Of a DNA stretch of 64,000 nt, positions 4,197 through 42,930 are shown one piece after another (the stretch's first letter is position 1; each line of letters begins with the position of its first letter). Under the pieces are notes generated by a model, which saw only the letters and a program-made list of their open reading frames with translations, was not told where the DNA came from and did not search any database. The position numbers and the translations under genes were made by a program. Source of the stretch: Escherichia coli (GTDB taxonomy: Bacteria; Pseudomonadota; Gammaproteobacteria; Enterobacterales; Enterobacteriaceae). Where the stretch lies: assembly GCF_044324875.1 (NCBI RefSeq), contig NZ_CP172185.1. One strand, given 5' to 3'.

Positions 4197-5388
4197 GCAA
4201 CTCTGGCGCTGGCATGGCATAACCGGCGACGGTAATGCGCAAGATGGGATGCTATGGGCAGAGAGTCGTGCTTTACTGCTTATGGCACTACAGCAACAGA
4301 TGGTTACCCCACTTAGCCTGAAGCGAATCGCCATCAATTCTGCGCAGTGGCGAGGAGATAAAAGCGCGGAAGTCATTCATCAACTGGCGACGCTACTCAA
4401 AGCCGGGTTAACGCTTTCTGAAGGGCTGGCACTGCTGGCGGAACAGCATCCCAGTAAGCAATGGCAAGCGTTGCTGCAATCGCTGGCGCACGATCTCGAA
4501 CAGGGCATTGCTTTTTCCAATGCCTTATTACCCTGGTCAGAGGTATTTCCGCCGCTCTATCAGGCAATGATCCGCACGGGGGAATTGACTGGTAAGTTAG
4601 ATGAATGTTGCTTTGAACTTGCTCGACAGCAAAAAGCCCAGCGTCAGTTAGCCGATAAAGTGAAATCAGCGTTGCGTTATCCCATCATCATTTTAGCGAT
4701 GGCAATCATGGTGGTTGTGGCAATGCTGCATTTTGTGCTGCCGGAGTTTGCTGCTATTTATAAGACCTTCAACACCCCACTACCGGTACTAACGCAGGGG
4801 ATCATGACGCTGGCAGACTTTAGTGGCGAATGGGGCTGGCTGCTGGTGTTGTTCGGCTTTCTGCTGGCGATAGCCAATAAGTTGCTGATGCGCCGCCCGA
4901 CCTGGCTTATCGCGCGGCAGAAATTGCTGTTACGCATCCCGATTATGGGTTCACTGATGCGGGGACAAAAACTCACGCAGATCTTTACGATTCTGGCGCT
5001 GACTCAAAGTGCAGGCATTACTTTTTTACAGGGCGTAGAGAGCGTCAGAGCAACAATGCGCTGCCCGTACTGGGTGCAACTTCTGACACAAATCCAGCAC
5101 GATATCAGTAACGGTCATCCCATCTGGCTGGCGCTAAAAAATACCGGTGAGTTTAGCCCGCTCTGTTTGCAATTAGTGAGAACAGGAGAGGCATCCGGCT
5201 CGCTGGATCTCATGTTAGACAACCTCGCCCATCATCATCGGGATAACACACTGGCGCTGGCGGATAACCTCGCAGCCTTACTGGAACCGGCGTTGCTGAT
5301 CATAACGGGAGGAATTATCGGTACGCTGGTGGTGGCAATGTATCTGCCCATTTTCCATTTAGGCGATGCAATGAGTGGAATGGGATAA
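4186..5388 (+). CDS. hofC: Type IV pilus inner-membrane platform protein (PilC/GspF family)
   Basis: 400 aa, overlaps hofB stop; hydrophobic membrane segments; conserved synteny. Confidence 0.95.
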   Translation: MASKQLWRWHGITGDGNAQDGMLWAESRALLLMALQQQMVTPLSLKRIAINSAQWRGDKSAEVIHQLATLLKAGLTLSEGLALLAEQHPSKQWQALLQSLAHDLEQGIAFSNALLPWSEVFPPLYQAMIRTGELTGKLDECCFELARQQKAQRQLADKVKSALRYPIIILAMAIMVVVAMLHFVLPEFAAIYKTFNTPLPVLTQGIMTLADFSGEWGWLLVLFGFLLAIANKLLMRRPTWLIARQKLLLRIPIMGSLMRGQKLTQIFTILALTQSAGITFLQGVESVRATMRCPYWVQLLTQIQHDISNGHPIWLALKNTGEFSPLCLQLVRTGEASGSLDLMLDNLAHHHRDNTLALADNLAALLEPALLIITGGIIGTLVVAMYLPIFHLGDAMSGMG

Positions 5389-8265: not shown

Positions 8266-8345
8266 TTGTCTGATGCGACGCTGGCCTGATAAGACGCGCC
8301 AGCGTCGCATCGGGCATCTTGTGCAAATGTTGGATGCGGCATAAA
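8266..8345. repeat. REP / palindromic unit cluster (BIME) between yacG and mutT
   Basis: gtctgatgcgacgctggcctgataagacgcgccagcgtcgcatc and related REP consensus in an intergenic region between convergent genes. Confidence 0.8.
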
Positions 8346-8348
8346 CAC

Positions 8349-8747
8349 CTATCCGACATACACGCGCTTAAGCTTCGCAATTACCGGTTCATTGGCTGGC
8401 GGAAACTCATCGGCATTAAGACCGACCAGCGACATCCACTTACCGGGTTGCCCTTCTTTACCCCACGGCTCCCCTTCCCAGCTTTCGACCAGCCAGAACC
8501 ACAGTGTTATATGCCTGTCCGGGAATTCATATTCGAGTTTTTCAAATAGCGAAAAATGTTGTGGGGTAATCCCGACTTCTTCCTGAAGTTCACGCACCAC
8601 CGCCTGTTCCGGCGTTTCACCCATTTCAATTTTACCGCCGGGAAACTCCAGTTTATTCGCCATGTGCGCATCTGCTGCGCGACGGGTTATAAAGATTTCA
8701 TTGTTCTCGTTGCGAATAATACCTACCGCAATTTGCAGCTTTTTCAT
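8349..8747 (-). CDS. mutT: 8-oxo-dGTP diphosphatase (Nudix)
   Basis: 132-aa ORF with Nudix box GGKIEMGETPEQAVVRELQEEVG. Confidence 0.95.
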   Translation of the reverse strand: MKKLQIAVGIIRNENNEIFITRRAADAHMANKLEFPGGKIEMGETPEQAVVRELQEEVGITPQHFSLFEKLEYEFPDRHITLWFWLVESWEGEPWGKEGQPGKWMSLVGLNADEFPPANEPVIAKLKRVYVG

Positions 8748-8806
8748 TGTCTTAAACCTATAAAAAAGGCGCAGAATCCTGCGCCTTTTACTTCAACTGT
8801 TAGCTT

Positions 8807-11512
8807 TTATTGCAGGCGACCATGGCACTGCTTGTATTTTTTACCAGAACCGCACGGGCAAGGATCGTTACGTCCTACTTTGCGTTCACCGGTTTGCGCC
8901 GCCAGTGCAGCTGCGGCTGCAGAGTCGTCATCCTGATGGCTAAGCTGCTGCATTTGCGCTAAACGCTCGGCTTCCATACGACGCTGTTGTTCCAGCTCCT
9001 CAACCTCTTCAGGCATACGTACCTGAACTTTGCTCAGCGTGCTGATAACTTCATATTTCAACGACTCCAGCATCGCTGCAAACATGGAGAACGATTCACG
9101 TTTGTATTCCTGCTTCGGATCTTTCTGTGCATAGCCACGCAGGTGGATACCCTGACGCAGATAGTCCATCGCCGCCAGGTGCTCTTTCCACAGAGAGTCG
9201 AGAGTTTGCAGCATGACGCCTTTTTCGAAGTGACGCATCATCTCAGCACCAACCACTTCTTCTTTACGCTGATACACTTCGATGGACTGCGCCAGAATGC
9301 GCTCACGCAGCGTCTCTTCATGCAGTTCTGGTTCTTTATCCAGCCACTCGGCAATTGGCAAATCGAGGTCGAAATCGTTCTTCAGACGTTCCTGCAGCCC
9401 CGGAATATCCCACATTTCTTCCAGCGACTGTGGCGGAATGTAGGCATCAATGGTCACTTTGAACACATCTTCACGAATGCTGTTGATGGTTTCGCTCACA
9501 TCGCTGACATCCAGCAGTTCGTTACGCTGGGAGTAAATGGCGCGACGCTGATCGTTAGCCACGTCATCATATTCCAGCAGTTGCTTACGAATGTCGAAGT
9601 TACGACTTTCAACTTTACGCTGGGCGTTGGCAATCGCTTTAGTCACCCACGGGTGTTCAATGGCTTCGCCTGGCTTCATACCCAGTTTACGCATCATGCC
9701 GGATACTCGGTCGGAGGCAAAAATACGCATCAGCGCATCTTCCATCGACAGGTAGAAACGGGAAGAACCAGCATCCCCCTGACGACCAGAACGACCGCGC
9801 AACTGGTTATCGATACGACGGGATTCGTGACGTTCAGTACCGATGATATGCAGGCCACCTGCTGCCAGTACCGCATCGTGACGAACCTGCCAGTCGGCCT
9901 TAATTTTTTCAATTTGCTCTGCGGTCGGATTTTCCAGCGCGGCAACTTCTGCCTGCCAGCTACCACCGAGCACAATATCTGTACCACGACCCGCCATGTT
10001 GGTCGCGATAGTCACCGCAGCCGGATAACCTGCCTGAGCAACAATCGCCGCTTCGTTGGCGTGGAATTTGGCGTTAAGGACGTTGTGCTTAATACCGGCT
10101 TTGGTCAGTTCGTTTGACACCAGCTCCGATTTTTCGATGGAGATAGTACCCACCAGCACCGGCTGGCCTTTCGCAGTACGTTCTTTGATATCTTCAATGA
10201 TCGCCTGAATTTTTTCCGCTTCAGTCATGTAGACCAGGTCCGGCAGATCTTTACGAATCATTGGACGGTTGGTCGGAACAACGACGGTATCCAGCTTGTA
10301 GATGGAGCTAAATTCGAAAGCTTCGGTATCAGCAGTACCGGTCATCCCCGCCAGTTTTTCATACAGACGGAAGTAGTTCTGGAAGGTGATCGACGCCAGC
10401 GTCTGGTTTTCGTTCTGGATCTGTACACCTTCTTTCGCTTCCACTGCCTGATGCAGGCCATCGGACCAACGACGTCCCTGCATGGTACGACCGGTGTGTT
10501 CGTCAACGATGATAACTTCACCATCTTTAACGATGTAGTCGACGTCTCGGGTAAACAGCGCATGAGCGCGCAGCGCCGCCGTTACGTGGTGCATCAGCAT
10601 GATGTTGGCCGGAGAGTACAGAGACTCCCCTTCATCCATGATGCCTTCTTTCACCAGCAGTTCTTCAATCAGCACCAGACCACGTTCGGTCAGGTTCACC
10701 TGGCGAGATTTTTCGTCCACCGAGAAGTGGCCTTCGCCCTGGAAGGTTTCGGAGTCTTCTTTTTCCTGACGGATCAGGTGCGGAATAATTTTATTCACGC
10801 GTTTATACATTTCCGAGCTGTCTTCTGCCGGGCCGGAAATGATCAGCGGTGTACGCGCTTCATCGATCAGGATGGAGTCCACTTCGTCCACCAGCGCATA
10901 GTGCAGTTTACGCTGTACACGTTCTTCAGGGCTGAACGCCATGTTATCGCGCAGGTAGTCAAAGCCGTATTCGTTGTTCGTACCGTAAGTGATGTCAGCT
11001 GCGTAAGCTTCACGCTTCGCCGGTGCTGGCATGCCCGGCAGGTTGATACCGACAGTCAGGCCAAGGAATTCAAACAGCGGACGGTTGTTTTCGGCGTCAC
11101 GTTGCGCCAGGTAGTCGTTGACGGTAACAACGTGTACGCCCTTACCGGTTAATGCGTTCAGGTAAGCAGGCAGCGTTGCGGTCAGGGTTTTACCTTCACC
11201 GGTACGCATTTCGGCGATGCAGCGTTCGTTAAGAACCATACCGCCGAGTAACTGAACGTCGAAGTGACGCATACCAAAGACGCGCTTACTTGCCTCACGC
11301 ACCACGGCGAAAGCTTCCGGGATCAGATTTTCCAGCACTTCGCCTTTTTCAAGACGTGCACGAAACTCTGCAGTTTTCCCTTTCAGTTCTTCGTCGGAGA
11401 GTTTTTCCATCTCCGGTTCCATGGCATTGATGATGTTGACCACTTTGCGCATCCGGCGCAGGGTGCGATCGTTACGACTACCGAAAACTTTAGTTAATAA
11501 TTTGATTAGCAT
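8807..11512 (-). CDS. secA: Preprotein translocase ATPase SecA
   Basis: 901 aa, [17 protein letters not shown]-terminus, C-terminal zinc-binding [14 protein letters not shown]. Confidence 0.98.
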
Positions 11513-13335: not shown

Positions 13336-14487
13336 TTAATCAGCTTGCTTACGCAGGAATGCTGGGATATCCAGATAATCCGGCTCTTTCGCAGTTTGCG
13401 GCGCATTGTCATTCACGACTTTAGCAACCGGCTTCTGCTCCTGGGTCAGCGGAGCCATCCCGTGCTGCTGGTAGCGATCCATCACTGGCTGCTGAACCTG
13501 CTTATTGGTCACCAGAGTGATTTCAGGACGTTTGTCCATGCCGATACCTGTCGCAACAACAGTTACGCGCAGCTCGTCATTCATATCCGGGTCAAGAGAA
13601 GTACCAATAACCACAGTCGCGTTGTCGGAAGCAAATGCACGGATGGTGTTACCTACCGTTTCAAACTCATCCAGACGCAGGTCGAAGCCCGCCGTGATGT
13701 TAACCAGCACGCCGCGTGCGCCAGACAGGTCGATATCTTCCAGCAGCGGAGAAGAGATAGCCATTTCAGCAGCTTCTTCCGCACGGTCTTCACCACTCGC
13801 CACGCCAGAACCCATCATTGCGTAGCCCATTTCAGACATTACGGTGCGTACGTCTGCAAAGTCCACGTTCATCAAACCCGGACGAGTAATCAGTTCGGCG
13901 ATACCTTGCACTGCGCCTTTCAGTACATCGTTCGCTGCGCCAAACGCATCCAGCAGGGAGATACCGCGGCCCAGAACTTTCAGCAGTTTGTCGTTCGGGA
14001 TAGTGATCAGAGAGTCCACATGTTTGGACAGTTCAGTGATCCCCTGCTCCGCGAATGCCATACGCTTCTTGCCTTCAAAGTTGAAAGGCTTAGTGACGAC
14101 AGCAACGGTCAGGATACCCAAATCTTTTGCCACTTCAGCGACGACTGGAGCTGCGCCTGTACCGGTACCACCACCCATACCCGCAGCAATAAAGACCATG
14201 TCTGCACCTTCCAGCGCCGCACGCAGTGCATCGCGATCCTCATCAGCCGCATTACGGCCAACTTCTGGATTAGCGCCAGCGCCCAGTCCTTTGGTGATAC
14301 CGCTACCGATTTGAATCGTCTGTCCAACCGCTGTTTTACGCAGCGCTTGTGCATCGGTATTTACCGCGAAGAATTCAACACCTTCAATGCGCTCGCGCAC
14401 CATGTGTTCAACAGCATTACCGCCGCCGCCGCCGACGCCGATGACTTTAATCACCGCGTCATTGGTAAGTTCCATTGGTTCAAACAT
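13336..14487 (-). CDS. ftsZ: Cell division GTPase FtsZ
   Basis: 383 aa with tubulin signature GGGTGTG. Confidence 0.98.
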
Positions 14488-14547
14488 AGTTTCTCTCCGA
14501 TTTGTGCCTGTCGCCTGAGGCCGTAATCATCGTCGGCCTCATAAAAA

Positions 14548-15810
14548 TTAAAACTCTTTTCGCAGCCAACTATTGAGTCGCTTGATCCACGAGCCAACTG
14601 ATGCTGTAACACGTTTTTCTACTTCAGCTTCACCGTTAAGATGTGACTCTTTTCCATAGTGAAGCAATCCCACCGCCGTCGAATAATACGGCTCCTGAGC
14701 ATAATCCGTTAAACCGGTAATGTTCAGCGGCGCGCCGATACGCACTTGCGTATGAAACACGCGCTGAGCACAGGCTGCAAGACCTTCGATCTGCGCTGCG
14801 CCACCAGTTAAAACAATGCCTGCCGCCAGGTGATGTTTAACCCCTTGTTGGCGAAGCTTTTCCTGCAACTGCAATATCTCTTCGTTGACCAAGTTGAGCA
14901 GCTCGGTATAGCGCGGCTCGATCACCTCTGCCAGGGTCTGACGTTGCAGACTCCGCGGTGGACGACCGCCTACGCTCGGCACTTCCACGCTCTCATCTTT
15001 TCCAACGATGGAACCCAGCGCACAACCGTGGCGAACTTTAATCGCTTCGGCGTCGCTTGGCGGCGTGCCAAAGGCGTAAGCGATATCACTGGTCACGACA
15101 TTGCCAGCATAAGGAATTACCTTAGTGTGGCGCAATGCCCCACCGGTATAAACGGCGATATCCATTGTACCACCACCGATATCGACGACGCAGACACCCA
15201 GTTCACGTTCATCTTCCGTCAATACCGAATAACTTGATGCCAGTCCGGCAAATATCAGTTGGTCAACTTTCAGCCCACAACGTTCAACCGCTTTGACGAT
15301 GTTTTTCGCCATATCGTTGTGACATGTGATCAGGTGCACTTTTGCCTGCATCCGCACGCCCGAAAGTCCTACCGGATTCTTGATCCCTTCCTGATAGTCA
15401 ATCGCATACTCTTGCGGGATCACATGCAGCACACGATGCTCATCGCGCACACGCACCGATTTCGCGGTATGGACGACGTTTTCCACATCTTCTTGCGTCA
15501 CTTCTTCTTCAGAAATAGGCACCATACCAATTTCATTCTGGCAGCTGATGTGCTTACCAGAAAGCGCCAGATATACCGAAGAGATCTGACAATCTGCCAT
15601 CAATTCTGCCTGGTCAATGGCGCGTTGTACGCACTTGACCACGGATTCGAGGTCGTTCACCCCGCCTTTATCCATACCACGCGACGGGCAGCTGCCCACG
15701 CCAATGATATTGACCATACCGTCGGGCAGAACTTCCCCTACTAAAGCGGCAACCTTCGCGGTACCAATCTCCAGTCCTACTACCAGTTTTCTGTCCGTCG
15801 CCTTGATCAT
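14548..15810 (-). CDS. ftsA: Cell division protein FtsA (actin-like ATPase)
   Basis: 420 aa; dcw synteny. Confidence 0.98.
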
Positions 15811-38927: not shown

Positions 38928-40944
<2,017 letters not shown>

Positions 40945-40977
40945 TTTGTAAACCGTTCGGCACTCAATCGCCAAAAA

Positions 40978-41204
40978 GAAAAAAGCCAGCAGATAATCAC
41001 TGCTGGCGTGGCGATTAACACCAATACTCAGTCACACATGATGTCCGCAAATCAGTAGTCAGAATGACTCCCCTCCCACTGCATCAGTTCTTCAAGCATG
41101 GTTAATAGTTGTGGGACGCTTAACCAACGCAACCAGCACAACTTCGCTGTCGCGGTAAAATAGTGCTGATAAAACTGACGCATGGGGCACCTCCTTGCTT
41201 CATC
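40978..41204 (-). ncRNA. sgrS: Small RNA SgrS (glucose-phosphate stress), contains the sgrT ORF
   Basis: Minus-strand sequence GATGAAGCAAGGAGGTGCCCCATGCGTCAG... ending in hairpin GCCAGCAGTGATTATCTGCTGGC plus T-run; divergent from sgrR. Confidence 0.8.
41052..41183 (-). CDS. sgrT: SgrT small protein (43 aa) encoded within SgrS
   Basis: MRQFYQHYFTATAKLCWLRWLSVPQLLTMLEELMQWEGSHSDY at the end of track ORF 41052..41351. Confidence 0.8.
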   Translation of the reverse strand: MRQFYQHYFTATAKLCWLRWLSVPQLLTMLEELMQWEGSHSDY

Positions 41205-41271
41205 GTTAGGAATTATTGACTTAATATAAGGAAAATAAAATTGCTGACTTTTGCGCAGGAGTTCCCCTTTT

Positions 41272-42930
41272 ATGCCATCTGCTCGTCTGCAACAACAGTT
41301 CATCCGCCTGTGGCAATGCTGCGAGGGTAAATCGCAGGACACGACGCTCAACGAACTGGCAGCGTTATTGAGCTGCTCGCGTCGTCATATGCGCACCCTG
41401 CTCAACACCATGCAGGATCGCGGCTGGCTGACGTGGGAAGCGGAAGTCGGGCGCGGTAAACGCTCTCGTCTGACATTCCTCTACACCGGGCTGGCGCTTC
41501 AGCAACAGCGGGCGGAAGACCTGCTGGAGCAGGATCGTATCGATCAACTGGTGCAACTGGTTGGCGACAAAGCGGCCGTGCGGCAAATGTTAGTTTCTCA
41601 TCTGGGCCGTAGCTTCCGCCAGGGGCGGCACATCCTGCGCGTTCTCTACTATCGTCCGTTGCGTAATCTGCTGCCCGGCAGTGCATTGCGTCGTTCCGAA
41701 ACCCATATCGCCCGGCAAATCTTCAGTTCGCTAACGCGCATAAATGAGGAAAATGGGGAACTGGAAGCGGACATCGCCCACCACTGGCAGCAAATTTCAC
41801 CGCTTCACTGGCGTTTCTTTTTGCGTCCAGGAGTCCATTTTCATCATGGTCGTGAACTGGAAATGGACGATGTGATCGCCTCTTTAAAACGAATCAATAC
41901 GCTGCCGCTCTATTCGCATATTGCTGACATTGTGTCGCCGACGCCCTGGACGCTGGATATCCATCTCACGCAACCGGACCGCTGGTTACCGTTACTGCTG
42001 GGGCAAGTTCCGGCGATGATCCTGCCGCGCGAATGGGAAACCCTCAGCAACTTTGCCAGCCATCCCATCGGAACGGGTCCTTATGCGGTGATCCGCAACA
42101 GCAGCAATCAACTGAAAATTCAGGCATTCGACGACTTCTTCGGTTACCGGGCATTAATCGACGAAGTTAACGTCTGGGTTCTACCGGAAATTGCCGACGA
42201 GCCAGCCGGAGGGCTGATGCTAAAAGGTCCACAGGGCGAGGAAAAAGAGATTGAAAGCCGCCTGGAGGAAGGTTGCTACTATTTACTGTTCGACAACCGC
42301 ACCCATCGCGGGGCGAATCAGCAAGTCAGGGACTGGGTAAGCTATGTGCTTTCTCCAACTAATCTGGTCTATTTCGCTGAGGAACAGTACCAGCAACTGT
42401 GGTTCCCGGCTTATGGACTGCTCCCACGTTGGCACCATGCTCGTCCGACACATTGCGAAAAACCCGCCGGGCTGGAAAGCCTCACCCTGACCTTTTATCA
42501 GGATCATATTGAGCATCGAGTGATTGCCGGGATCATGCAGCAGATTCTGGCAAGTCACCAGGTCACGCTGGAAATCAAAGAGATCAGCTACGATCAGTGG
42601 CATGAAGGAGAGATCGAGAGCGATATCTGGCTTAACAGCGCCAACTTTACGCTGCCGCTGGATTTTTCGCTGTTCGCGCACCTGTGCGAGGTGCCGCTGC
42701 TCCAACACTGTATTCCGATCGACTGGCAAGCCGACGCCGCCCGCTGGCGCAATGGCGAAATGAATCTGGCGAACTGGTGCCAGCAACTGGTCGCCAGTAA
42801 AGCAATGGTGCCACTTATCCACCACTGGCTGATCATTCAGGGGCAACGCAGTATGCGCGGTCTGCGTATGAACACCCTCGGCTGGTTCGATTTTAAATCA
42901 GCGTGGTTTGCGCCGCCTGATCCAGAGTAG
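41272..42930 (+). CDS. sgrR: Transcriptional activator SgrR
   Basis: 551 aa starting [15 protein letters not shown]; the track ORF carries a 7-codon upstream extension. Confidence 0.95.

Follow-up and report, generated by a model that had tools for sequence, protein, structure and literature searches.

A widespread setA-less form of the leuD-sgrS-sgrR locus in Escherichia coli and its probable history within the genus

Organization of the leuD-sgrR Locus

The analysed stretch of DNA (hereafter, the window) comprises 64,000 nucleotides of the Escherichia coli contig NZ_CP172185.1 (assembly GCF_044324875.1). Its closest complete genome was that of strain 135; the nearest match in the collection was 99.2% identical over 10.9 kb, and the flanks of the locus were about 97% identical to K-12. 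The locus comprises, in order, the leuL leader, leuA, leuB, leuC, and leuD on the plus strand, SgrS/sgrT on the minus strand, sgrR on the plus strand, an extra ORF, a TPP riboswitch, and thiB. Its features are listed below.

40339-40944, plus strand: leuD, an ORF with the stop codon TAG at 40942-40944; the last gene of leuLABCD
40945-40972, no strand: junction spacer of 28 nt from the leuD stop to the SgrS T tract, where K-12 has setA
40973-41007, minus strand: SgrS terminator, with the hairpin at 40985-41007 and the T tract at 40973-40984
40978-41204, minus strand: SgrS, full-length match to Rfam RF00534
41018-41043, minus strand: conserved SgrS block ACACCAATACTCAGTCACACATGATG (given as the plus strand), from a multi-genus alignment
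41052-41183, minus strand: sgrT, 43 codons and a stop, from ORF translation
41205-41271, no strand: divergent sgrS/sgrR promoter region, conserved in alignments
41272-42930, plus strand: sgrR, transcriptional activator of sgrS, from the ORF and the RefSeq annotation of near-identical loci
43970-44069: TPP riboswitch of thiB, upstream of the gene

The LeuD and SgrR proteins of the window were 99% and 97.6% identical to those of K-12, respectively (tblastn). From the leuD stop, 33 nt (40945-40977) lead to the 3' end of the Rfam SgrS match and 28 nt to the T tract, in agreement with the first-pass annotation, which had placed the SgrS terminator about 30 bp from the leuD stop (40944). That annotation had placed setA between sgrS and leuD in K-12, and rightly so, since the RefSeq setA (1179 bp) of the K-12-derived genome AML001_ev03 is situated exactly between sgrT and leuD. 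Its claim that setA is missing from this interval in the window was also borne out, both by the 33-nt gap and by tblastn with K-12 SetA (E ≤ 1e-10, at least 60% of the query length), which gave no match anywhere in the 64 kb. The query itself scored 602.6 bits on TIGR00899 (Set family MFS sugar efflux transporters), a family for which this search gave no homologue in the window. In the K-12-type sgrS-setA operon, setA starts about 27 bp past the terminator; in the window, the terminator is followed by 28 nt of unrelated spacer and then by leuD.

Downstream of sgrR, an insertion of about 1 kb separates its stop codon from the TPP riboswitch of thiB (interval 42931-43969). It contains an ORF of 189 aa (43160-43729, minus strand) that RefSeq annotates as the T3SS effector EspY2 in strain 1190, O157 86-24, and IAI39; the insertion is absent from K-12 and S88. 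Only 169-173 of 190 positions of the window ORF were identical to the annotated copies, and it had no Pfam or NCBIfam match. Beside the insertion site, the last 550 nt or so of sgrR (42380-42930) were 82-91% identical to K-12 against a background of about 97%, and a comparison of K-12 with Escherichia sp. MOD1-EC7003 gave 86-89% identity for the same stretch. Elsewhere in the window, Rfam matches at the gathering level were obtained for PssrA, STnc40, and naRNA4 (14479-14568, 8762-8831, and 8283-8358, respectively, all on the minus strand), the first of them where ftsA meets ftsZ in the dcw cluster according to the annotation of strain 135.

SgrS, Its Terminator, and SgrT

The SgrS gene of the window matched RF00534 over model positions 1-232 with 223.6 bits (gathering score 37, E = 9.7e-63). 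Its identity was 225/227 (99%) to S88, 214/227 (94%) to E. albertii, and 197/227 (87%) to K-12, and over the 3' 100 nt or so the window and K-12 were only 74-84% identical. Both types of SgrS 3' allele had counterparts in the outgroups, GCGGCGATTAAC in Citrobacter and GGGTGATT in Salmonella, Enterobacter, and Klebsiella. The block at 41018-41043 was unchanged in Escherichia, Salmonella, Citrobacter, Enterobacter, and Klebsiella, with one base different in Enterobacter soli. A base-pairing region near the 3' end of SgrS is needed for pairing with ptsG mRNA (Horler & Vanderpool, PMC2760817); the block of the window corresponds to this region, its role being assigned by analogy with that work.

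The sgrT ORF has retained its ATG and encodes the protein MRQFYQHYFTATAKLCWLRWLSVPQLLTMLEELMQWEGSHSDY, which scored 43.2 bits on Pfam PF15894 (cut-off 27). The full-model RF00534 match, the 43-codon ORF, and the Pfam score uphold the earlier statement that SgrS and SgrT are intact. The C-terminus of SgrT is of the setA-less type, ending in EELMQWEGSHSDY, versus EGLMQWDDRNSES in K-12. Residue 26 (41106-41108, minus strand) is Leu in the window (PQLLTM) versus Arg in S88, IAI39, 1190, and K-12 (PQRLTM); in strain 135, the SgrT annotated by RefSeq is identical to the window protein and shares R26L. In O157:H7 86-24, the sgrT start is ATT and not ATG (locus L085, about 5296-5298), in agreement with the published loss of the sgrT start codon in O157:H7 (PMC2760817).

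The terminator scan identified a hairpin at 40985-41007, made of an 8-bp stem (GCCAGCAG/CUGCUGGC) and a loop of 7 nt; next to it, at 40984-40973, comes UUUUUUCUUUUU. RNA folding gave -28.7 kcal/mol (z = -3.8). On the SgrS strand, the T tract reads TTTTTTCTTTTT in every setA-less allele, and a similar interrupted tract occurs in Citrobacter. The U tract of the window is thus U6-C-U5 (40973-40984) versus the uninterrupted U8 of the K-12 type (locus L001, 3360-3372). Hfq binding and termination efficiency depend on the length of the U tail (PMC4509938), and this difference may affect both.

The terminators reported by the scan were on the minus strand only, and the separate leuD-proximal hairpin of K-12 is absent from the window. 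The SgrS hairpin was considered as a bidirectional terminator also serving leuD, but this was not supported, since the leuD strand has GUGGCGAUUAAC after the hairpin and no U run. In the window, leuD and sgrS converge on this one shared hairpin; since it lacks a U run on the leuD strand, some mutual antisense read-through might, speculatively, take place.

The 28-nt spacer was present in register at every setA-less Escherichia locus aligned. A blastn-short search of the spacer against 80 loci gave only chance matches of 9-13 nt, with no recognisable homologue in setA-carrying loci; therefore, the deletion breakpoints cannot be placed on setA-carrying sequence. The SgrS terminator hairpin and T tract are flanked by a perfect 8-nt inverted repeat, AATCGCCA / TGGCGATT (40966-40973 and 41009-41016), whose arms pair as an outer stem when the structure of the read-through RNA is predicted. 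E. albertii has AATCGTCA, which still pairs, with a G-U pair, only on the leuD-sense strand.

Distribution of the setA-Less Junction among E. coli Genomes

A 151-nt query spanning the leuD-sgrS junction was compared with 5426 complete E. coli genomes. One uninterrupted match to the setA-less junction was present in 2143 of them (about 40%), and K-12 setA was matched in 3241, with at least 99% identity in 3228 of these. The whole leuD-sgrR locus was found in 5399 genomes. The two counts sum to 5384 of these 5399, indicating that the states are essentially complementary and giving no sign of a relocated setA in the collection. In a SetA protein search, the best 120 matches were all near-identical E. 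coli SetA, with no other Escherichia and no donor among them.

The setA-less strains include S88, O157:H7 86-24, O55:H7, IAI39, and NRZ14408, and the setA-carrying ones include K-12, BLR(DE3), and O111. We take the named setA-less strains to belong to phylogroups B2, E, and F and the named setA-carrying strains to A and B1. The identity or near-identity of the junction in thousands of independently finished genomes refutes a collapsed or mis-joined region in the assembly, so an artefact of this kind can practically be dismissed.

The setA-Less State in Other Escherichia and in Outgroup Genera

A scan of species-representative genomes with the SgrR of the window yielded 80 loci, comprising 4 Escherichia species, 75 informative non-Escherichia loci, and one locus truncated too far to be scored. 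The Escherichia sampling was incomplete, with representatives of E. coli, E. fergusonii, E. marmotae, and E. ruysiae absent under those names; the E. coli representative was missing from the scan even though the SgrR of E. coli is 97.6% identical to the query. An SgrT search found no E. fergusonii entry and added one setA-less Escherichia lineage (GCA_013709175.1).

The setA-less junctions of E. albertii, E. whittamii, and Escherichia sp. E1V33 aligned in register with that of E. coli, spacer included, and the same junction is present in GCA_013709175.1, which is about 94% identical to E. coli. Only one of the five sampled non-coli Escherichia lineages, Escherichia sp. MOD1-EC7003, carried setA. 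Between Escherichia species, identity across the junction was 89-96%, matching that of the neighbouring leu genes and sgrR; divergence at the level of the flanks agrees with the vertical inheritance of one old deletion.

These data bear on the first-pass suggestion of a lineage-specific deletion, which fails given that the same junction recurs in four or more other Escherichia lineages and, within E. coli, in 2143 of the 5426 complete genomes. A recent loss in the window strain or its close relatives, as a contrast with K-12 alone might suggest, is refuted by this distribution together with the background-level divergence of the junction between species, and we consider it highly improbable.

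In all 75 informative non-Escherichia loci of the Enterobacteriaceae, setA adjoins sgrS in the position and orientation found in K-12. They represent about 19 genera, including Citrobacter, Salmonella, Enterobacter, Klebsiella, Kluyvera, Raoultella, Atlantibacter, and Buttiauxella, and their identities to K-12 covered much the same span for SetA (75-89%) and SgrR (73-88%). The presence of setA is, judging from this sequence comparison, ancestral for the Enterobacteriaceae. Against the family, in which all 75 loci keep the gene, the setA-less state is a deletion, but in the genus and in E. coli it is the older of the two arrangements. The first-pass alternative that the arrangement of the window is ancestral consequently stands for the genus and the species and falls for the family.

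It could also be supposed that the ancestor of the family had no setA at this position, so that the order without it would be the original one and setA would have been inserted independently elsewhere. Some outgroup-like traits of the setA-less allele, namely the leuD end ...FMR* and the Citrobacter-like SgrS 3' end and T tract, would fit such a course. It is refuted by the uniform position and orientation of setA beside sgrS in all 75 loci, and the SetA and SgrR identities to K-12 overlap; we give it very little credence.

Divergence of the K-12 setA Cassette and Proposed History of the Locus

Synonymous codon differences between K-12 and MOD1-EC7003 amounted to 3.6% in setA and 15.8% in leuC, leuD, sgrR, and thiB taken together (Fisher p = 2e-12), so that setA divergence is about 4-5 times below that of the flanks. 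The 3.6% is also lower than the synonymous differences of 7-9% in flanking genes between the window and K-12. Over a background of about 94% identity between K-12 and MOD1-EC7003, a block extending from the leuD end through setA to about 100 nt into sgrS was 98-99% identical, and it coincides with the stretch in which the two E. coli alleles differ most. Thus, the last 66 nt of leuD contain 13 mismatches between the window and K-12 (20%) versus 2-4% in the rest of the gene; the last 25 nt or so are allele-specific, with the protein ending in ...KQPAFMR* in the window and ...KQPAFMN* in K-12. The low synonymous divergence of setA points to its later restoration by recombination in A/B1.

A donor from a foreign genus was rejected for K-12 setA, because at the DNA level the gene is as similar to its counterparts in Citrobacter and Salmonella (77-80% identity) as sgrR is. 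On the same grounds, the cassette looks like a gene of the Escherichia lineage and not an import from another genus.

The absence of setA is a common gene-content polymorphism that has already been published. The AB1 sublineage of E. coli was reported to have acquired the SetA transporter (PMC6896753, BMC Genomics 2019), and that gene-content reconstruction, with setA gained by A/B1, implies that the other phylogroups are without setA, as is the window. Its passages on setA treat the gene as an acquisition and make no mention of setA at the same locus in every other enterobacterial genus sampled here. From the sequence comparisons, the published A/B1 'acquisition' would be better described as the restoration of a gene lost by the genus, returning with a distinct SgrS 3' end.

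Taken together, the leuD-sgrS-sgrR locus of the window is of the widespread setA-less type; very probably, the setA of the family was deleted once on the Escherichia stem, the deletion was inherited vertically, and the gene was later restored in A/B1. The ancestral order in Enterobacteriaceae would have been sgrR, followed on the opposite strand by sgrS and setA, and then leuD. A single deletion on the Escherichia stem would have taken out setA together with its leader and with the separate hairpin beside leuD, leaving the 28-nt spacer. The resulting allele would have passed vertically to E. albertii, E. whittamii, other Escherichia lineages, S88, O157:H7, IAI39, and the window strain. The K-12-type cassette, of about 1.4 kb, would comprise the last 25 nt or so of leuD, setA, and about 100 nt of the sgrS 3' end, which hold the terminator and the SgrT C-terminus. 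Homologous recombination in the A/B1 lineage most likely brought this cassette back, in an exchange that would have involved MOD1-EC7003 in either direction; its source would be a lineage that kept setA throughout the Escherichia radiation.

Stated in its most specific form, the proposal is a single loss of setA at the root of Escherichia, followed by its restoration in A/B1 and its sharing with one or more further Escherichia species, through a homologous replacement of about 1.4 kb that also exchanged the 3' third of SgrS and with it the C-terminus of SgrT, the loop of the terminator, and the length of the U tract; we give this an even chance of being correct. If it is, E. coli has two co-inherited sgrS(3')-setA haplotypes, which may wire the response to glucose-phosphate stress differently through SetA output, terminator read-through, the Hfq-binding tail, and antisense transcription into leuD.

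An alternative is a trans-species polymorphism, with both alleles dating from the Escherichia ancestor, setA retained by A/B1, and the MOD1-EC7003 copy derived from E. coli. The SgrS 3' 100 nt or so differ by 16-26% between the alleles, far more than between E. coli and E. albertii within the setA-less class, and both SgrS 3' types have counterparts in outgroup genera, so an old two-allele polymorphism is conceivable; the distance of K-12 setA to Citrobacter and Salmonella likewise fits a native gene of the Escherichia lineage. However, such a polymorphism must have outlasted several speciations and then have sorted in such a way that four of the five sampled non-coli lineages as well as S88, O157, and IAI39 all retained the deletion allele. 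The near invariance of setA within E. coli (at least 99% identity in 3228 of 3241 genomes) also argues against it, as does the ancestral reconstruction in PMC6896753, in which setA is called an AB1 acquisition. This explanation therefore appears rather unlikely, though clearly less so than a recent deletion or an original absence from the family.

Functional Implications and Comparison with Known Loci

The setA gene of K-12 is transcribed together with sgrS when the sgrS terminator is read through, and it starts 27 bp past this terminator (PMC9765468, PMC4509938). SetA aids cells in recovering from glucose-phosphate stress through an as yet unexplained mechanism (PMC4021124). By analogy with K-12, in the window SgrR should activate SgrS, and SgrS should pair with ptsG mRNA and encode SgrT; these sRNA and SgrT arms are predicted to be working because SgrR, the sgrS promoter, the near-3' block, SgrT, and the terminator are intact. 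The SetA arm, the output of terminator read-through, is absent, and any read-through would run antisense into leuD.

The K-12 sgrS-setA operon, which serves as the model of read-through at an sRNA terminator, is missing from about 40% of the complete E. coli genomes, S88, O157:H7, and IAI39 among them. Since the presence of setA is closely associated with a different type of SgrS 3' end and of SgrT C-terminus, the results obtained in K-12 on termination, Hfq binding, SgrT, and SetA may not carry over to setA-less strains.

The window shares with the K-12 sgrR/sgrS-sgrT-setA locus the divergent sgrR/sgrS arrangement, the promoter, the near-3' block, an intact sgrT, and an 8-bp hairpin with a U tract. 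Unlike the window, K-12 possesses setA and the sgrS-setA read-through operon, the U8 tract, a separate hairpin after leuD, and another SgrT C-terminus.

The tbpA-leuD region has been compared across species, with setA drawn in Figure 2 (Horler & Vanderpool 2009, PMC2760817), and K-12 SgrS was found there to be 88% identical to the SgrS of CFT073 and O157:H7. The setA-less SgrS allele class was, accordingly, already described at the SgrS level in that study. The window resembles the sgrS loci of S88 and IAI39 (and, by publication, those of CFT073 and O157:H7) in the setA-less junction and the SgrT type, with an SgrS identity of 99% to S88. It differs from S88 and IAI39 by SgrT R26L, from O157:H7 by the retained ATG of sgrT, and from S88 by the presence of espY2 downstream of sgrR.
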